64,000 nucleotides of DNA, taken from assembly GCA_028693035.1 (NCBI GenBank), contig JAQUWE010000003.1, forward strand, positions 8,255 through 72,254, written 5' to 3'. The DNA is from Bacilli bacterium. GTDB taxonomy: Bacteria > Bacillota_I > Bacilli_A > RF39 > UBA660. The notes under the pieces are model-generated. The model was given only the letters and a program-made list of their open reading frames with translations. It did not search any database and was not told the origin of the DNA. Numbering within the stretch: position 1 is the first letter of the stretch; every line of letters starts with the position of its first letter. Of this stretch, positions 44,250 through 52,681 are shown in pieces. The position numbers were made by a program, and so were the translations under genes.

Positions 44250-44286
44250 AAAAAGGTTTGTATAGAAAAGCTATATAAACCTTTTA
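44250..44286. terminator. bidirectional terminator between convergent genes
   Basis: 12-bp stem AGGTTTGTATAG / CTATATAAACCT flanked by an A run and a T run. Confidence 0.65.
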
Positions 44287-44952
44287 ATTTTTTATAGTAA
44301 TATGTAAATCTTCTTCTAATTTTTGTAACTCGTCTTTAGAAAAAGCTTTAAAGTCTTTTTTTATGATTTGATTCTCATTAAACTGATAAGGTTGCAAAAG
44401 AAGTTTATTTGGGTATTTCAAATAGGTTAGTACTTCTTTTATATTTTTGCTTGTATGCATGGTTTTATTGATAGTCATTCTAAATTCATAGTAAATATTA
44501 CTGTTTTCTAGAAGCCCAATACTTTTTTTAATAGCGTTTGTATTTATTTTAGTACCTACTGTTTCTTCATATTTATCAAAAGTATTTTTTATATCCATAG
44601 CGATATAATCCACTAAATCTTTTTCTATAATTTCTTTTATAAGAGCAGGATTGGTACCATTTGTATCTAGTTTAATAGAGAAGGGGAATTGGCGGAGTTC
44701 TTCCAATAAAGCAATTAAATCATCTCCATAGAGAGTGGGTTCACCACCAGTTACAACAACTCCATTTAAAAAGTGAATTCTACTTTTCAGTAAAGTTTTT
44801 ACATATTCTAAAGTATAAGTATTACTTTTTTTAGAAACAATACTATCATTATGACAATAAGGACATCTTAAATTACAGCCTCCTAAGAATAAAACCAAAG
44901 CTGGTTTACCAGGATAGTCTACCAGCGATAGTTTTTGAATGCCATAAATCAT
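44284..44952 (-). CDS. nrdG: anaerobic ribonucleoside-triphosphate reductase activating protein (radical SAM)
   Basis: CNLRCPYCHN radical-SAM cluster motif. Overlaps the nrdD stop by 4 nt. Confidence 0.85.
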   Translation of the reverse strand: MIYGIQKLSLVDYPGKPALVLFLGGCNLRCPYCHNDSIVSKKSNTYTLEYVKTLLKSRIHFLNGVVVTGGEPTLYGDDLIALLEELRQFPFSIKLDTNGTNPALIKEIIEKDLVDYIAMDIKNTFDKYEETVGTKINTNAIKKSIGLLENSNIYYEFRMTINKTMHTSKNIKEVLTYLKYPNKLLLQPYQFNENQIIKKDFKAFSKDELQKLEEDLHITIKN

Positions 44953-47042
44953 TCTACAACATACTCTTTACGGCAATGAAATTCCTCTTGTTTTGACTTG
45001 TTGAAGTTTTGTACAGGACGATAATAGCCAACGACACGTGTCCAAACTTCGCAATCACTGCCACAAGTAGGGCAAATAAAGTGTTCTCCACTTATATACC
45101 CATGTTCCTTACAAACACTAAAGGTTGGTGTAATAGATAGATAAGGCAAACGATAATTATCAAAAATATTTTTAATTAAGTTTTTTGTAACTTCAGGATC
45201 GTGGATTCTCTCTCCCATAAAGGCATGGAGTACAGTACCACCTGTATATTTAGTCTGTAAATCATCTTGCAAGGTAATGGCTTCAAATAAGTCATCTGTT
45301 GCACCTACGGGAAGCTGGGTACTATTCGTGTAACAATCTTCCTTTTCTCCTGATGTAATAATATCTGGATACATCTTTTTATCAATGCGGGCAAGTCTTG
45401 GTGCTGTTCCTTCTGCAGGTGTTGCTTCTAGATTATACAAATCTCCATTTTCTTGGTACTCTGTTAATACATCATTCATAAAATCTAGAATATCCTTCGC
45501 AAATTCTTGTCCGTAAAGACCTGAAATATCTTCTTTTCCATCTGTAAAGTTTAAAATACATTCATTCATTCCAATAATACCAATGGTGTTGAAATGGTTT
45601 TTCCAATATTCTCCAAAACGTTCTTTGATATCTTGTAAGTAAAATTTACTATATGGGTAAAGGCCTTCTTCTGTATTCTTTTCAATAATTTTTCTTTTTG
45701 TTTCAAGAATATTTTGACACATATCCATTAAATCTTTTAAATGTTTTTTTAATTCTTTTTTATTTTTATATAAATAACCAAGTCTTGGAAGATTGATTGT
45801 AGTAATACCGATGCTTCCTGTTAGTGGGTTTGCGCCAAATAAACCTCCACCTCTTTTTCTTAAGACACGGTTATCAATACGAAGACGGCAACACATACTT
45901 CTTGCATCTTCTGGAGACATGTCACTATTTACAAAGTTTGCAAAGTAGGGAATTCCATATTTACTTGTCATTTTCATAACATCTGTTACAATAGGTCGTT
46001 CCCAGTCAAAATCTTTTCCAATATTGTAAGTCGGAATAGGGAAGGTAAAGATTCTACCACTTGCATCTCCTTCCGTCATGGCTTCACAAAAGGCTTTGTT
46101 TATAATATCCATTTCCTTTTGAAATTCGCCATAGGTTTCTTCTTTATATTCTCCTCCAATAATGACATGTTTATCTTTTAAAAGAGAAGTGACTTTTAAA
46201 TCTAATGTAATATTGAAAAAAGGAGTTTGAAAGCCTACTCTTGTAGGTACATTTACATTGAAAATAAATTCTTGCATCGCTTGCTTTACAGAGGCATAAT
46301 CTAAGCCATCATAGCGAATGAAAGGGGCTAGGTAAGTATCAAAACTAGAAAGGGCTTGCGCCCCTGCAGCTTCTCCTTGTAAGGTATAGATAAAGTTGAC
46401 GATTTGCCCTAAAGCACTTCTAAAGTGTTTGGCAGGTTTACTTTGTACTTTGTTTTGTACACCTCCAAAACCTTTCATCAAAAGTTGTTCTAAATCCCAT
46501 CCACAACAATAGGTAGACAAAAGGCATAAGTCATGGATATGAATGTCTCCATTTTCGTGTGCTTTTCTTTGTTCTAGGGTAAAAATATGATTGAGCCAGA
46601 AGTTCTTAGTGACTTCTGTAACCACATAATTGTTGAGTCCTTGCAATGAATAATTCATATTGGCATTTTCATTGACAGCCATATCGGAACCTTTTATATA
46701 GTGCGCGATCATTTTTTCGACAGCCTTGCTACTTAATTTATCGTTTCGTAGTAATTCCCTTTGATATCTATAACGGATATAGTTTTTAGAGACTTCTACT
46801 TTATTTGAATAGATAAGAGCTCTTTCAACAGCATCTTGTACTTGTTCAAGCCCTACAATAGGAATATTTAATCCTTCTAAATCTATCATGGCATTGTTGG
46901 CAAGTAATGCAGCTTCTCTTTTTATAGATGCATCTTCTTTATCTGGATAAGTTGCTTTCATTGCTTTTACAATGGCTTTTTCCATTTTCTCTTTTTTAAA
47001 TTCTTGTTTACTACCATTTCTTTTTACGATAAATTCTATCAT
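44949..47042 (-). CDS. nrdD: anaerobic ribonucleoside-triphosphate reductase (class III)
   Basis: N-terminal ATP-cone, the STYCCGWD and SMCCRLR cysteine motifs, a C-terminal CPTCGSDC zinc ribbon and the RVVGYYRP glycyl-radical motif. Confidence 0.9.
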   Translation of the reverse strand: MIEFIVKRNGSKQEFKKEKMEKAIVKAMKATYPDKEDASIKREAALLANNAMIDLEGLNIPIVGLEQVQDAVERALIYSNKVEVSKNYIRYRYQRELLRNDKLSSKAVEKMIAHYIKGSDMAVNENANMNYSLQGLNNYVVTEVTKNFWLNHIFTLEQRKAHENGDIHIHDLCLLSTYCCGWDLEQLLMKGFGGVQNKVQSKPAKHFRSALGQIVNFIYTLQGEAAGAQALSSFDTYLAPFIRYDGLDYASVKQAMQEFIFNVNVPTRVGFQTPFFNITLDLKVTSLLKDKHVIIGGEYKEETYGEFQKEMDIINKAFCEAMTEGDASGRIFTFPIPTYNIGKDFDWERPIVTDVMKMTSKYGIPYFANFVNSDMSPEDARSMCCRLRIDNRVLRKRGGGLFGANPLTGSIGITTINLPRLGYLYKNKKELKKHLKDLMDMCQNILETKRKIIEKNTEEGLYPYSKFYLQDIKERFGEYWKNHFNTIGIIGMNECILNFTDGKEDISGLYGQEFAKDILDFMNDVLTEYQENGDLYNLEATPAEGTAPRLARIDKKMYPDIITSGEKEDCYTNSTQLPVGATDDLFEAITLQDDLQTKYTGGTVLHAFMGERIHDPEVTKNLIKNIFDNYRLPYLSITPTFSVCKEHGYISGEHFICPTCGSDCEVWTRVVGYYRPVQNFNKSKQEEFHCRKEYVVE

Positions 47043-47404
47043 ACTTACAATCTCCTTCTTTTTGTTTGTGGTACCCTAATACCCTGATTATACACTTCAC
47101 GGAAATTAAAAGTCAATAGTAAAAAAGTAAAACATTTAGGATAATGTAAAATACTAGAAAATAATAAAAATACAAAAAAAGAATAAAAAAACATTAACCA
47201 ACAGTAGAACTGAAAAACAATATACGCCTTATAATATAAAGTGTAAATACGTATTTTGATAAGTAAAAATAAAAATGTTTTTTTTGATAAAAAATAAAAA
47301 TATGATAAAAATAAATTAAATTAAAATTTTGAAAATAGATTGATACAACAGATAAAATGCAGTATAATAGTAGAAGATAACTGGAAATAGTAGGAGGCAT
47401 ACAT

Positions 47405-49537
47405 ATGGTAGAAAAAAAGAAACCACTTGACACTTTAATTGTTGTAAAAAGAAGTGGGCAAAGAACAGAGTTTAATGGAGAAAAAATAGCCCTCGCAATT
47501 AAAAAAGCTTTTGATAGCGCTCTTACGGTGTATGATCCAGAAAGTGCAAATAAAGTATATGGTAAAGTTTTAGAAAAATTAGAAAAAGAATATCAAGATA
47601 GAAAGACCATCAAGATAGAAGATATTCAAGATAAAATAGAAGAACAACTCAAAAAAAGTAATTATATAGATGTTTATGAATCTTTTTCTAACTATCGTAT
47701 TAAAAGATCTCTATCTAGAGAAACGTTTGCTTTGAAGCAGCAACACAAATTTTTAAAAGCAATAGAGTCTTTGGGTTTATCTTCCTTAAAAGAAGGAGGA
47801 ACACCTCTTGCTTTGGAAGAACAAAGTCCAGCAGAAGTCATCTATAACTTTGGGGTTACTATTTCTAAGGAATTTGCGAAAGCTTACCTATTAGACAATA
47901 AGTTTGTAAGAGCTATGGATAGTGGTATGATTCACATTCATGGATTAGAGTTTTTATCAATGGGAACAACCTCTACCATTCAAGTAGAATTAGAAAAACT
48001 ATTTAAAAATGGCTTTTCTTTAGGCTATGGAAATAAAAGTATGCCATCAGATATCTATGAATATGCAAACAAAGCTGCTTTTGTTATAGAAGCTGCAGAA
48101 AATAACCAACATGGAAGTGCTGTGATAGGTGCATTTGATTATGCTATGGCGCCTGGTGTTTTAAAAACATTCAAAAAAATCTTTAAAAAACAGGTACACG
48201 AACTTTTGTTATATGAAGATATTTTTGAATTTGTAAATATAGAAAGAGTAGGTAAAGAAATTGATAAAATGGATAGTCTTTCTATTTCATTAAGTACTTT
48301 TGATTTTGCTTACAGAAATTCTAAAAAGATTTATCATTTGTTTGATGAAGCATATGAAAATGCGGTTATGGAAACAAAAGAGGATGTAAGAAAAGCAATG
48401 CTTTACTTTATAGAGAGTTTGAATGCAGTGTATGCAAAGGCAAAACCAAGAGATTACCTTTCTACCATTTGTTTTGGAACGGATACTTCTTTAGAAGGAC
48501 ATATGATTAGTGAAAGTATTCTTGATGTTTTAGATATGCTTAATAAAGAAGGAAAAACAGTAATTAGACCTGTTTCTATCTTTAAAGTCAAAGAAGGTAT
48601 CAATTTTACTAAAGAGGATATGCTATATAGTTTATATGAAAAAGCTGTAAATACAGCGCTTTATACAGGTCTTGTAAGGTTTAGTTTCCTTGATTCTCCA
48701 CCAAATAAAAAAATGTATAAAAAAACTGACTATACATCGGAGGTTACCTATACAGAAAAGGGAGAACGTACGGCTGAAGATGGTACAAGTGTGGATGTAC
48801 AAACATCTGGTGGAAAAGGAAATATTTCAGCAACTTCTCTAAATTTACCTAGACTTGCGATTAAATATGGTATTTGCACGAAAGAAAGAGAAACGGCAGA
48901 TATGAAAGGTTTCTATAAAGAATTAGAAGAATACTTAGATATTGTCAAAGACCAATTGTTAGAGAGATTTGAAATTCAGTGTAGTAAGCACAATTACAAT
49001 TTTCCTTTTTTAATAGGACAGGGTGTATGGAAAGATGGAGAAAAGGCTAAAGATACAGATCGTCTACGTAAAATATTAAAACATGGAAATTTAACCATTC
49101 ATTTTGTAGGTCTTGCGGAAGCTTTAACCGCTCTTATTGGAAAACACCATGGACAAAGTGAGGAAGCTTTAGAATTAGGTTTAGAAATCGTTACTTTCAT
49201 GAAAAAGAAAACTGATATTTATACAGAAAGAAACAATCTTAATTTTGCGTTATCAGGTGTGAATTATAAACAAGAAAACGAAAGATTCATAAATATTGAT
49301 AAAGCTATTTATGGAAAAATAAAGGATGTAACAGATGGGGAATCTTATACAGAGTCTTTTCATATTCCTATGAAGAAAAAGATATCTGAAAAAGAAAGAA
49401 TAGAAAAAGAAGCACCATTTCATACGCTTACAAATGGTGGACATATATTTTACTATAATGGAAAAAGAGAGATTAAAGAATGCATGGATACTTTATCCCA
49501 TATGAAAGGGTCTGGGATTGGTTATACAAAAGTGTAG
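47405..49537 (+). CDS. NrdD-like protein with an ATP-cone that lacks the catalytic cysteines and zinc ribbon (degenerate class III RNR paralog)
   Basis: ATP-cone VVKRSGQRTEFNGEKIALAIKKAF. It shares the IHIHGLE and SLNLPRLA blocks with NrdD. GTTSTIQ replaces YCCGWD, there is no CCR motif, and the protein ends at GSGIGYTKV. Confidence 0.6.
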   Translation: MVEKKKPLDTLIVVKRSGQRTEFNGEKIALAIKKAFDSALTVYDPESANKVYGKVLEKLEKEYQDRKTIKIEDIQDKIEEQLKKSNYIDVYESFSNYRIKRSLSRETFALKQQHKFLKAIESLGLSSLKEGGTPLALEEQSPAEVIYNFGVTISKEFAKAYLLDNKFVRAMDSGMIHIHGLEFLSMGTTSTIQVELEKLFKNGFSLGYGNKSMPSDIYEYANKAAFVIEAAENNQHGSAVIGAFDYAMAPGVLKTFKKIFKKQVHELLLYEDIFEFVNIERVGKEIDKMDSLSISLSTFDFAYRNSKKIYHLFDEAYENAVMETKEDVRKAMLYFIESLNAVYAKAKPRDYLSTICFGTDTSLEGHMISESILDVLDMLNKEGKTVIRPVSIFKVKEGINFTKEDMLYSLYEKAVNTALYTGLVRFSFLDSPPNKKMYKKTDYTSEVTYTEKGERTAEDGTSVDVQTSGGKGNISATSLNLPRLAIKYGICTKERETADMKGFYKELEEYLDIVKDQLLERFEIQCSKHNYNFPFLIGQGVWKDGEKAKDTDRLRKILKHGNLTIHFVGLAEALTALIGKHHGQSEEALELGLEIVTFMKKKTDIYTERNNLNFALSGVNYKQENERFINIDKAIYGKIKDVTDGESYTESFHIPMKKKISEKERIEKEAPFHTLTNGGHIFYYNGKREIKECMDTLSHMKGSGIGYTKV

Positions 49538-49670: not shown

Positions 49671-49746
49671 GTCTCCGTAGCTCAGTTGGTAGAGCAACTG
49701 ACTCTTAATCAGTGGGTCCACGGTTCGAGCCCGTGCGGGGACACCA
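49671..49746 (+). tRNA. tRNA-Lys (anticodon CTT), CCA encoded
   Basis: Manual cloverleaf: acceptor GTCTCCG/CGGGGAC, anticodon stem ACTGA/TCAGT with loop CTCTTAA, and T arm CACGG-TTCGAGC-CCGTG. Confidence 0.9.
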
Positions 49747-49756
49747 ATTTGAATTT

Positions 49757-49783
49757 AAAGATAGTTTTTCTATCTTTTTTTTA
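49757..49783 (+). terminator. intrinsic terminator after tRNA-Lys
   Basis: AAAGATAG-ttttt-CTATCTTT followed by a T run. Confidence 0.7.
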
Positions 49784-49945
49784 TAATAAAAATTGATTTA
49801 AAGTTATTGATTCTAAATGAATCTTAACAATGTTAATCGTACTATTAGAATGTTAAAAAATAAAAATTTATCAATACAAACATCAAAAGACTTATTCCTA
49901 TTATCAAGAAAATAGTATATAATTAATTTGTTAGGAGGTTGTTGT

Positions 49946-50965
49946 ATGGAACATTATAACACAATAATAATTGGTGGTGGCTTATCTGGGTGTACTCTCG
50001 GTTATTTACTAAGAAAACAAGAAAAAAAGGTTTTAATAATTGAAAAGCAAAAACTAACATTAAAAAATAAATTGTGTGGTGGTCTTTTAACTAATAAATC
50101 GCTTGAACTCTTAAAGAAAATTTACAAGGATAACAATTTAGAAGAACTTAATATTAAAAGTTATGATAAGGCAAAAATCACTAATAACAATATTACATTC
50201 GATGTCGACAATATAAATACTTATAGTACTTATAGAAAAAAATTAGATGATTATGTTTTAAATAAATATAAAAGTTTAGATGGAGAAATAGTAGATAAGA
50301 CCACATATGATTATATAGACTTTGATAATAATATTGTTTATTTTGAAGATAGACAAATCTCATTTGATTCTATTGTGGGTGCAGATGGGGTATTTAGTCA
50401 ATTGAGAAAAGATGTTATGAATAAAAATCAGAGAATGAACTTTGCACTTGAAGTTGCCTGTGAAAGCAGTAATTTTAATGAGGTCAATATTTCTTTTTTT
50501 GATAATTTTAAGGGTTATGGATGGATTATTCCAAATGAAAATTATGCGATGGTTGGTATTGGAAATGTTGATGAAAAAAATAAAATTGATAATGATTTCA
50601 ATAGTTATTTGAAAGGAATTAATATTAGACCAACAAATAAAAAGGGTGCTTTTCTACCTACAGGAAATGATATTTTACTTAATTATAAAAATAATATATT
50701 TTTTGTAGGAGATAGTGCAGGCTTAATATCACCTATTACAGGGGAAGGAATTTATTATTCATTATATTCTGCCTTGATTTTAAGCAATACTATGAATAAA
50801 AATTACAGTAAAAATATGAATTTTATTATAAAAAATATTAAAAGGGATTTGTTTTTTATGAAGTTTGTATATAATAATAAAATAAGAAATTATCTGTTTT
50901 CAAAATATAAAAAGAACAAAAACATTACAAAACGTATTAACAAATTTGCTAAACATATATTATAA
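49946..50965 (+). CDS. FAD-dependent oxidoreductase, geranylgeranyl reductase-like family
   Basis: IIIGGGLSGC dinucleotide motif, KLCGGLL, GADGVFSQLR and GDSAGLISPITGEGI. Confidence 0.65.
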   Translation: MEHYNTIIIGGGLSGCTLGYLLRKQEKKVLIIEKQKLTLKNKLCGGLLTNKSLELLKKIYKDNNLEELNIKSYDKAKITNNNITFDVDNINTYSTYRKKLDDYVLNKYKSLDGEIVDKTTYDYIDFDNNIVYFEDRQISFDSIVGADGVFSQLRKDVMNKNQRMNFALEVACESSNFNEVNISFFDNFKGYGWIIPNENYAMVGIGNVDEKNKIDNDFNSYLKGINIRPTNKKGAFLPTGNDILLNYKNNIFFVGDSAGLISPITGEGIYYSLYSALILSNTMNKNYSKNMNFIIKNIKRDLFFMKFVYNNKIRNYLFSKYKKNKNITKRINKFAKHIL

Positions 50966-51051
50966 TTAAAACATCTTTAATGAACGGTGGTTAAAGTATA
51001 ACCAAGTAGAATTAGGTATTATTAAAAAACTATATAATAAGGAGATAAGAA

Positions 51052-51597
51052 ATGGATGAATTAATGAAACATTTAAATGGTTTTAAAATATCTGCTCGAA
51101 GAATAGAAACTCTTCCTGTATATAAAATAGAGGATGATGAGTGGGAGGAATATCAAAATTATATAAATGGTGTTCCCGAACATTCTTTTGAACCTAGTGA
51201 TTGGTTTAGGACTGTAGTGCAACACACAAAAAATGGTAGAGTGGTTGAGAGAATTAGGGTCATACCGGAAGAGATTAATCCGTATATAATATTTGAGTTC
51301 GAAACGGGTTATGTACCACATTCAGTGGCAGGAGAAAAGATTCATACAATTAGTATAGAAAAATATAATGCCTTACTTAGTCAAATTAAAAAGGGTGATT
51401 TTTGGATTTTTGATGATGAAACAGTTCTCGAAATGATTTATAGTGATGACGGTAAATTTTTGGGTACCAATGTTGTTGATGAATCATTTGCGGTACAGGA
51501 ATTTATTAGATCTTACGATAAAATCAAAAAAGATGCTGATGATTTTTCTGCAGTATTAAAAATTATTCGAAATAAAAGTATAAAAAAAGAATATTAA
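51052..51597 (+). CDS. hypothetical protein (DUF6879-like by recollection)
   Basis: Good SD AAGGAG. No catalytic motif recognised. Confidence 0.35.
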   Translation: MDELMKHLNGFKISARRIETLPVYKIEDDEWEEYQNYINGVPEHSFEPSDWFRTVVQHTKNGRVVERIRVIPEEINPYIIFEFETGYVPHSVAGEKIHTISIEKYNALLSQIKKGDFWIFDDETVLEMIYSDDGKFLGTNVVDESFAVQEFIRSYDKIKKDADDFSAVLKIIRNKSIKKEY

Positions 51598-51716
51598 ATC
51601 AGTAGAAATTATATTGTTAATTTTTACGTTAATTGTAGTATAGATTTTGCTAAATATAAACACATAGATTATAATACATAATTTTGGTGTGATTGACTTA
51701 TAGTAGGAGTGAAAAT

Positions 51717-52577
51717 ATGAGAGAAGATATCATAAAAAATAGCGTTTATTTTTTAAAGTTAAATGAAATTGATTATTATATTAAACAGAATACAACATTT
51801 AAATCAATATTTGATAATACTGATAAAGAAAAATTAATTGAAATATATTATAGAAACAAACAAAATAGTAATGTATTTAATGGCGTATCTACTAGATTAG
51901 ATAAAATTATTTTAAATAAGCAAAACTGTATTTTAGAAATATCAAAAGTTAATTATTTTGATTTAATAACCTCCAATATGTTATATTTTAAACCCAACCA
52001 ATGGTTAGATAATTGCTTAAGTGAAGATGAATTAAACTTTTGTAAAAATAAGATAGGGGAAATAAGAGGTGTAATAGAAGGTCATAAGAAATTAGAAGAT
52101 ATTATAAATAATGAAAACATTTCAAATATTATGGCTGTTAGTGTATTAATAGAGGATATGGATGGTAAAATTGGTATTACAAAAAGAACATCCAATGTCA
52201 GTATGTCATCTGGATTTGTTAGTACTTCAGTAACCGGATCTGTTGATGGAGAAAATTATCTTGATGATAATCCACTTATTCACTGTGTTAACAAAGAAGT
52301 GTTTGAAGAATTGGGATTAAAAATAAATCAAATAGAACTAAAGGGACTTGCAATCTCTAAAACAAAATTACAACCAATTTTCCTCTTTAATGCTAAATTA
52401 GATGATACTTGGGAAAACGTAATACAAAAGATGAAATCAGCTAAAGATTATAAAAAGGAAATAGAAAAATTTTCTATCGTTTCAATTTCTGATATTCCAG
52501 GGTTATTAACTAATAATGAATTATCAGATGCTACAAGATATCATATTTATTTAAAGTATAAGGGAAATAATAAATAA
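51717..52577 (+). CDS. Nudix-fold-like protein with a degenerate Nudix box
   Basis: AVSVLIEDMDGKIGITKRT...SGF...TGSVDGE...CVNKEVFEELGL resembles Gx5Ex7REUxEExGU, but R is replaced by K and the first E is absent. Start moved to ATG 51717, after AGGAG. Confidence 0.4.
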   Translation: MREDIIKNSVYFLKLNEIDYYIKQNTTFKSIFDNTDKEKLIEIYYRNKQNSNVFNGVSTRLDKIILNKQNCILEISKVNYFDLITSNMLYFKPNQWLDNCLSEDELNFCKNKIGEIRGVIEGHKKLEDIINNENISNIMAVSVLIEDMDGKIGITKRTSNVSMSSGFVSTSVTGSVDGENYLDDNPLIHCVNKEVFEELGLKINQIELKGLAISKTKLQPIFLFNAKLDDTWENVIQKMKSAKDYKKEIEKFSIVSISDIPGLLTNNELSDATRYHIYLKYKGNNK

Positions 52578-52681
52578 TATAAAGAGAACTAGTCATAGTC
52601 TCTTTTTTGATGATATAATATTGATGAGATTGAAATTATAAAAACAAAATAAATTTATTTTTAAATCAAAGGAGAATGAAA

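Follow-up and report, generated by a model that had tools for sequence, protein, structure and literature searches.

A conserved NrdD-like family that has lost the predicted catalytic parts of anaerobic ribonucleotide reductase and kept its ATP-cone

A 64-kb stretch of contig JAQUWE010000003.1 (Bacilli bacterium, assembly GCA_028693035.1), which was analysed at its full length of 64,000 nucleotides and is termed here the window, encodes a 710-amino-acid (aa) protein resembling NrdD, the anaerobic (class III) ribonucleotide reductase (RNR), divergently from a bona fide nrdD-nrdG pair. As judged from its alignment to active enzymes, this protein can be neither a ribonucleotide reductase nor a glycyl-radical enzyme. 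The gene is nonetheless maintained by purifying selection, and its product belongs to a family of NrdDs without catalytic residues, hereafter dead NrdDs, in which the N-terminal ATP-cone is the best-conserved part. RNR allostery is a textbook case, with the ATP-cone known to act in cis on catalytic subunits; it is also known from one NrdB and from the NrdR repressor. For the protein described here, we consider it probable, at roughly 60%, that it is a non-catalytic, trans-acting accessory of the anaerobic RNR system encoded alongside it and that it senses ATP and dATP.

Results

Domain organization and predicted fold

The dead gene opens with ATG, 7 nt downstream of a GGAGG sequence at 47393-47397, and its product is composed of an ATP-cone (59.9 bits against a Pfam cut-off of 25.8), a linker helix, a degenerate former substrate flap and an NrdD barrel (Table 1). 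The open reading frame (ORF), the cone and the 362-bp divergent spacer had already been pointed out in a first-pass annotation made from the letters of the window, and all three were confirmed by ORF and Pfam analysis. The Pfam NRDD match (E 1e-91) is confined to residues 140-709, which correspond to profile positions 7-503 of 562 only. Among the NCBIfam models, the best match is NF005497/PRK07111 with 527.5 bits (profile positions 3-683 of 746), under its cut-off of 764, while TIGR02487 yields 293.7, under a cut-off of 326; the protein scores under the cut-offs of all NrdD equivalogs. Its best sequence match is the P. copri NrdD (PcNrdD, 8P23; E 9.5e-84). Structural modeling with AlphaFold2 (pLDDT 79, pTM 0.72), followed by Foldseek matches to PcNrdD (8p2c, E 2e-41, with a TM of as much as 0.86 relative to the target) and T4 NrdD (1h79, E 3e-26), predicts that the NrdD barrel fold is retained. 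The former flap is predicted to be disordered, with pLDDT <50 across residues 113-144.

Loss of the catalytic parts

The dead protein was aligned to its closest active NrdDs, to PcNrdD and to T4 NrdD, using the residue roles established for PcNrdD (PMC11226230). Both radical cysteines are gone. The beta-1 position is occupied by T191 and by N or S in orthologs, the site reading TTSTIQ, TTANMQ or TTSSIQ among the three closest dead orthologs. In the finger loop, the position of the thiyl cysteine falls on K452 by MAFFT and on E454 by HMMER, and the alignment contains no cysteine in the finger loop of any of these three orthologs. Earlier, no counterpart of the SMCCRLR segment of the adjacent NrdD had been recognized in this protein; the cysteine is indeed missing, but the finger loop itself does have a counterpart in residues 449-456. 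The losses proposed at the same time for the equivalents of Cys79, Cys290 and the zinc ribbon held in the alignments to the closest active NrdDs, PcNrdD and T4 NrdD, and the by-eye pairings with the adjacent NrdD (IHIHGLE/IHIHDLC, SMGTTSTIQ/STYCCGWD and SLNLPRLA/TINLPRLG) were reproduced by BLASTP.

The remaining active-site motifs have fared no better. The IHIHD of active relatives reads IHIHG, and their YTNS reads YTES. At the specificity site, Asn298 of PcNrdD corresponds to S338, and the nearby Glu of AMEAF, conserved in active relatives, corresponds to L333; loop 2 is variable among the three closest dead orthologs. Residues 577-581 of PcNrdD, including Glu581, form the substrate phosphate loop (PMC11226230), of which only a remnant can be aligned here. 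Both the zinc ribbon and the glycyl-radical domain (RxxGY) are missing, since the chain stops at the last barrel strand in the alignment and in the model alike. The C-terminal GSGIGYTKV had been read as a possible vestigial glycyl-radical motif, which it is not, because it pairs with ESGIGYGAINHPVD, located N-terminal to the zinc ribbon of active relatives, and is modeled by AlphaFold2 as the last barrel strand (residues 707-709). A remnant of the C-terminal domain was also sought 3' of the stop codon by three-frame translation and by tblastn with full NrdDs and with the 56-aa radical peptide of a sister lineage (see below), and none was found. The same radical peptide has no tblastn match anywhere in the window, nor in L001 or L003, two of the syntenic loci.

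Without both radical cysteines, the NxN flap, the phosphate loop, the specificity-site Asn, the zinc ribbon and the glycyl-radical domain, the protein would be unable to reduce nucleotides, and this inventory of motifs excludes both ribonucleotide reduction and glycyl-radical catalysis as its function. The first-pass annotation had offered a glycyl-radical protein with different chemistry as an alternative; this is contradicted by the missing glycyl-radical domain as well as by the lack of a free radical peptide gene in the window and the syntenic loci.

Purifying selection and conservation of the ATP-cone

Intact syntenic orthologs of 710, 715 and 713 aa are found at 72, 57 and 48% identity, all within a common gene order consisting of a Mur ligase, ddl, a Rieske/FAD protein, an unknown gene, nrdG and nrdD, followed by the dead gene in divergent orientation. 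Measured against these orthologs by NG86, the ratio of nonsynonymous to synonymous substitution rates (dN/dS) is 0.12-0.16 for the whole dead gene, 0.06-0.18 for its cone and linker and 0.13-0.24 for its barrel core, compared with 0.05 for nrdD and 0.13-0.22 for nrdG; these values are approximate due to the saturation of dS (>1.2), although their direction is clear. At the protein level, the dead gene evolves ~3.5x faster than the adjacent NrdD. The dead gene is thus maintained by purifying selection.

What is being conserved becomes evident from the 53 members of the main dead clade (described below). The mean top-residue frequency is 0.68 in the cone and 0.41-0.52 in the barrel, whereas active NrdDs exhibit the reverse, with 0.41 in the cone and 0.55-0.65 in the barrel. 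The cone (residues 12-102) together with the helix that follows it (103-121) is by far the best-conserved part of the dead family. The predicted nucleotide ligands K15, R16, Y97, R101 and R105, which were mapped from K7, R8, Y83, R87 and R91 of PcNrdD, are 98-100% conserved among the 53 members, suggesting that the cone still binds two ATP or dATP molecules. A second set of cone residues (S17, Q19, R20, N49, Y52, R66, K67 and T68) lies outside the ligands and is conserved in the dead family only, suggesting that part of the cone surface is a protein interface. Most of the conserved barrel positions are fold determinants common to the active enzymes; the clearest dead-specific position is G453 of the finger loop (91%), with R455 at 72%.

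A large family of dead NrdDs and its probable origin

A profile built from the three closest dead proteins was searched against 1.84 billion cluster representatives (50% identity), and the best 150 were sorted by motif. Among these 150, 58 are dead and full length (630-758 aa), lacking the thiyl cysteine, the NxN flap, the ATPAEG loop, the zinc ribbon and the radical domain, while another 61 are conventional active NrdDs, of which many contain inteins. In the IQ-TREE phylogeny, 53 dead sequences form a single clade (SH-aLRT 100), which is sister to a group of split active NrdDs (support 100). The window protein is located in a 13-member subclade, has one of the shortest branches and is among the least diverged members of the family. 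Smaller dead groups branch outside of the main clade, and inactivation may have occurred more than once, with long-branch effects as another possible source of this pattern. The closest active relatives are 765-774 aa long and share 50-52% identity with the dead protein. Relatives of the gene come from metagenome-assembled genomes (MAGs) labelled uncultured Bacilli, Erysipelotrichaceae, 'Ca. Faecenecus', Mollicutes and Tenericutes. Close copies of the window itself, which has a G+C content of ~29%, were found in landfill, bioreactor and anaerobic-digester metagenomes.

These closest active relatives are split class III RNRs, which occur in the loci L004:5001-8066, L006-L011, L013, L015, L016 and L031. 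In these, a 765-772-aa NrdD ends after the zinc ribbon and the radical peptide is encoded by a separate ORF of ~56 aa with RRVTGYL...NNGKRAEEHDRVKH; nrdG lies directly 3' of most of them, with none detected in L015, L016 and L031. No paper describing this split layout was found. The fused form of NrdD is also present among the relatives (L012, L014 and L018).

Presumably, the dead family originated when the large subunit of a split NrdD lost its radical peptide gene, after which the orphan barrel would have shed its catalytic residues and, last of all, its zinc ribbon. The state of P0129 fits such an origin: it is placed within the main dead clade and is itself dead, ends with a zinc ribbon and has no radical domain. 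From its profile matches and phylogeny, the family appears to be a pseudo-NrdD lineage descended from formate-type class III RNR, and we found no published description of it. More generally, a search of the literature for dead NrdDs or ATP-cone pseudoenzymes found none described, and Burnim et al. 2022, who filtered sequences by length only, did not discuss such proteins. Public sources that name members of the family call them 'ribonucleoside-triphosphate reductase', and metabolic reconstructions of gut and digester Bacilli may consequently count a reductase that is absent.

Genomic linkage to class III RNR

Across the 18 loci with enough flanking DNA, the dead gene adjoins class III RNR genes in 14 and stands elsewhere in 4, a linkage that is frequent but not universal. 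Two arrangements account for most of these. In four loci (the window, L001, L003 and L034), the dead gene is divergent from nrdD-nrdG, and in nine (L021-L026, L028, L029 and L035), it is part of a dead-nrdG-nrdD operon in which successive genes either overlap at their stop and start codons or are separated by no more than ~20 nt. In L014 (2785-4809), a dead member of ~675 aa is encoded directly 5' of, and on the same strand as, an active fused NrdD of the PRK07111 type and nrdG; the NrdD subtype with which the dead family is paired is thus not always the same. The L014 MAG is labelled Muribaculaceae, and the locus appears Bacilli-like. A physical connection to the activase is found in P0220 (904 aa), a member of a separate dead lineage, which combines a barrel lacking the cysteines, a retained zinc ribbon and RRINDLL in place of RRITGYL with a fused NrdG domain whose CxxxCxxC motif is intact (C767, C771 and C774).

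The divergent spacer

The spacer between nrdD and the dead gene (47043-47404) contains a predicted promoter for each of them (Table 1), and both the nrdD promoter and the -10 block GGTATAAT of the dead-gene promoter are conserved in L001, L003 and L034. Each promoter of the window is accompanied by one AATGT(7-8) copy located 54-68 nt 5' of its -35 box: AATGTTTTTTTT for the dead gene and, on the minus strand, AATGTTTTTTT for nrdD. The four divergent-type spacers all retain the sequence AAAAAAACATT. AATGT(6+) also precedes the dead gene in 10 other fetched loci (L014, L021, L022, L023, L025, L028, L029, L034, L035 and L037), eight of which (all except L022 and L037) add an inverted A(6+)CATT copy positioned at the -35 box or close by. 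The exact decamer of the element occurs only ~0.1 times per kb across all fetched DNA. The element may be an operator or a UP-like element serving co-regulation. In the window and, preceding the dead gene, in L014, L021, L023, L025, L028, L029, L035 and L037, the conserved inverted pair AATG-T(7-8)/A(7-8)-CATT is spaced by 54-70 nt; in loci of the operon type, its second member directly adjoins the -35 box (AAAAAAACATTGAC).

NrdR boxes were sought with ACACWATATATWGTGT in the 362-bp spacer and the orthologous spacers, and none was convincing; the best match in the window spacer has 4 mismatches and is not conserved. Rfam at the gathering threshold returned only tRNAs in the window, with neither a riboswitch nor any other RNA element in the spacer. 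Elsewhere among the fetched loci, AATGT/ACATT-related motifs precede other split operons, a perfect 22-bp palindrome, AAAATGTAAAATTTTACATTTT, lies upstream of the split-NrdD operon in L009 (within L009:5770-6000), and L032 (Oscillospiraceae) has classical NrdR boxes instead.

Relationship to the adjacent NrdD

The adjacent NrdD carries an ATP-cone, an NxN flap, a CC finger loop, a zinc ribbon and an RVVGY radical motif, and its core is closest to that of the T. maritima NrdD (4COI, 4U3E). By BLASTP, it shares 28% identity with the dead protein over the N-terminal 250 aa plus one short C-terminal stretch only. The first-pass annotation had called the two paralogs; a recent duplication of the adjacent NrdD was rejected on the basis of this limited similarity and of their different best-matching families. 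The dead protein instead appears, by its profile and sequence matches, to stem from formate-type, PRK07111-like NrdDs, a different subfamily from the NrdD next to it. A phmmer search with cone sequences detected no further ATP-cone ORF in the 64-kb window.

Table 1. Positions of the dead NrdD-like gene, its parts and the neighbouring features in the window
Feature	Position	Strand	Basis or remark
Dead NrdD-like gene, 710 aa	47405..49537	+	ORF; Pfam ATP-cone and NRDD
ATP-cone, residues 12-102	47438..47710	+	Pfam PF03477, E 3.6e-16
Linker helix after the cone, residues 103-121 (F108, K111, H114, K115, F116, K118, E121)	47711..47767	+	87-100% conserved in the dead family; model helix 88-122
Degenerate former NxN substrate flap, residues 122-150	47768..47854	+	3-residue deletion and LAL/ATL/AVL in place of KRENANVDG of active relatives
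NrdD alpha/beta-barrel core without catalytic residues, to last strand (707-709)	47855..49534	+	AlphaFold2, Foldseek, dN/dS
Codon T191 at the beta-1 Cys position (T4 C79, PcNrdD C171)	47975..47977	+	TTTCMQ in active relatives
Finger loop Y449-T456 without thiyl Cys (T4 C290, PcNrdD C416)	48749..48772	+	YTEKGERT vs active YMGCRTRV
Phosphate-loop remnant GVNYKQ (active: ATPAEG)	49256..49273	+	Alignment
Weak terminator-like hairpin and U run, right 3' of the stop codon	49539..49578	+	-11.1 kcal/mol, z-score -1.75
tRNA-Lys(CTT), directly downstream of the dead gene	49671-49746		
Predicted promoter of the dead gene, sigma-70 type, TTGATA-17 nt-TATAAT	47340..47368	+	11/12 consensus matches
Conserved element, 54 nt 5' of the dead gene's -35 box	47274..47285	+	
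Second copy of the element, 68 nt 5' of the nrdD -35 box	47185..47195	-	
Predicted nrdD promoter, TTGACT-18 nt-TATAAT	47087..47116	-	Conserved in L001, L003, L034
Bona fide NrdD, 697 aa, T. maritima-like PRK08270 type	44949..47042	-	NF006126, 1028 bits vs cut-off 548
NrdG activase, 222 aa, NrdG2 type	44284..44952	-	TIGR02495, 198 bits vs cut-off 131

Discussion

Several observations converge upon an accessory role in anaerobic nucleotide reduction. The first-pass annotation had proposed a pseudoenzyme that senses (d)ATP and works with NrdD/NrdG, and this proposal is supported by the loss of motifs, the selection on the gene, the existence of a family, the conserved cone and the genomic linkage; the regulatory function is what we infer from them. 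That the partner would be the anaerobic RNR is suggested by gene linkage and by the single fusion to NrdG. The cones of active NrdDs alter their position and oligomeric state with ATP or dATP (PMC11226230; PMC12662201), which is why a trans-acting cone on an inert scaffold is the most economical mechanism for the dead protein. In such a mechanism, an inert and probably dimeric barrel would present the cone, which would shift its conformation or oligomeric state with the dATP/ATP ratio. Two routes are conceivable from here. Firstly, the protein could modulate the activase NrdG and hence installation of the glycyl radical. Secondly, it could modulate the active NrdD via cone-cone or cone-core contacts. 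The broader proposal, that dead cone-bearing NrdDs as a whole represent a widespread regulatory subunit, in which a cone on an inert barrel reads the dATP/ATP ratio and gates NrdG or the active NrdD in trans, is one that we advance tentatively and at clearly less than even odds.

Several findings count against an accessory role. The adjacent NrdD has an apparently intact ATP-cone of its own, so a second sensor is not obviously needed. Furthermore, the dead protein lacks the glycyl-radical domain, the very part of NrdD that NrdG normally recognizes. In L020, L037, L038 and L039, the four exceptions among the 18 loci, the dead gene lies away from RNR genes. The saturation of dS noted above applies here as well. 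Lastly, the sign of transcription is possible but weak: run X6, labelled 'METAGENOMIC RNA-Seq', from insect gut and the one candidate RNA library among the matching runs, contains low-depth contigs from a strain ~96% identical that cover parts of the spacer and the dead gene (window 47000-49500), and DNA carry-over is a possible source.

The alternative that survives best is a nucleotide-sensing regulator whose target is not an RNR protein, for instance one that controls how the nrd promoters or other genes are transcribed, replacing NrdR or acting alongside it. The predominance of the cone among the conserved parts would suit such a role, as would the spacer, which has no NrdR box and in which AATGT(7-8) is common to both divergent promoters and recurs 5' of dead-gene operons in distant relatives. 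However, Pfam detects only the ATP-cone and NRDD domains and thus no DNA-binding domain, the zinc ribbon that serves as the DNA-binding part of NrdR is precisely what has been lost here, and the AATGT element may be a mere promoter feature resembling a UP element. We therefore regard a transcription regulator as unlikely.

It is quite improbable, in our estimation, that the old barrel houses a new, non-RNR enzyme activity, or that it serves as a radical enzyme relying on a separate glycyl-radical peptide supplied in trans. Purifying selection acts on the core, and a few of its residues (G453, R455, N480 and R483) are conserved specifically in the dead family; in addition, the sister lineage does employ a separate 56-aa radical peptide. 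Nevertheless, the former active site is the least conserved region, with HxHD, NxN, ATPAEG, TNS and loop 2 all varying within the family, and there is no thiyl cysteine for a radical relay. A radical-peptide ORF is likewise lacking from the window and the syntenic loci, and the barrel no longer has the residues, among them the Glu of ATPAEG, on which a radical domain would dock.

Another function would need no specific partner: the protein could be a passive nucleotide buffer, or a decoy that sequesters ATP/dATP or an RNR effector encoded by a phage. The conserved two-nucleotide cone and the members not encoded beside RNR genes would both be compatible with this, but the tight operons with nrdG and nrdD and the NrdG fusion of P0220 point to a specific partner, as does the conserved non-ligand surface of the cone (S17, Q19, R20, N49, Y52, R66-T68), which suggests a protein interface; this makes a buffer very improbable. 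A decaying pseudogene or functionless relic, which the loss of every catalytic motif and the ~3.5x faster protein evolution might bring to mind and which the first-pass annotation had named, for a gene devoid of conserved orthologs, as something that would refute its reading, is scarcely credible and was rejected, given an uninterrupted 710-715-aa frame, a synteny and a promoter that are shared by orthologs as distant as 48% identity, a dN/dS of 0.12-0.16 and a family of at least 58 dead clusters at 50% identity.

The trans-acting accessory that we favor has partial parallels among known systems. PcNrdD and the other formate-type NrdDs (8P23, PRK07111) share with the dead protein a two-nucleotide-type cone with its ligands, a linker helix and a 10-stranded alpha/beta barrel in the same order; they differ in having Cys171, Cys416, the NxN flap, the phosphate loop, Asn298, the zinc ribbon and the glycyl-radical domain, all of which the dead protein lacks. 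The split NrdDs of uncultured Bacilli, exemplified by P0078 (a 766-aa chain accompanied by NrdG and by a radical-peptide ORF of 56 aa), are similar in that their large chain has no radical domain, yet they keep every catalytic motif, the zinc ribbon and an adjoining radical peptide gene, none of which the dead protein has. NrdR is comparable as a non-catalytic protein whose ATP-cone reads ATP/dATP for the supply of deoxyribonucleoside triphosphates (dNTPs). In contrast to the dead protein, with its inert barrel of 600 aa, no detectable DNA-binding domain and no NrdR box in its spacer, NrdR has ~150 aa and a DNA-binding zinc ribbon. That a cone can act from outside the catalytic chain has a precedent in NrdB, the radical-generating subunit, of Leeuwenhoekiella blandensis (5OLK), to which the dead protein's cone has a weak match (E 6e-4), but there it is carried by an active subunit of a class I enzyme.

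Dead paralogs that regulate an active partner are exemplified by the prozymes of S-adenosylmethionine decarboxylase (AdoMetDC) and deoxyhypusine synthase (DHS) in trypanosomatids (PMC5201418, PMC3663545). As in the present case, their catalytic residues have been lost, they are kept under selection and they are linked to an active enzyme. Unlike the dead NrdD, prozymes heterodimerize with a close paralog, whereas the adjacent NrdD belongs to a distant subfamily (28% identity, N-terminus only) and the partnership proposed here is deduced from linkage. Beta-herpesviruses likewise have dead R1 homologs, but the targets of these are cell-death pathways of the host and not RNR.

If the broader proposal of a widespread regulatory subunit is correct, control of overall activity would act partly at the installation of the glycyl radical. 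To our knowledge, allosteric control at this step is not known for any RNR or glycyl-radical enzyme. A large family that carries only a cone on a dead reductase body and is encoded together with the active enzyme and its activase would constitute a new wiring of dNTP control in anaerobes. The family also records a plausible path toward a pseudoenzyme, in which the detachable radical peptide of a split enzyme is lost and the barrel left behind is put to another use.

A final observation concerns the DNA beyond the dead gene. The block at 49747-52600, which follows the tRNA-Lys gene, encodes a geranylgeranyl-reductase-like flavoprotein and two unknown proteins and has a G+C content of 24% in 50001-52000. 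This block is missing from the orthologous site in L001, where a 153-aa unknown ORF stands in its place.

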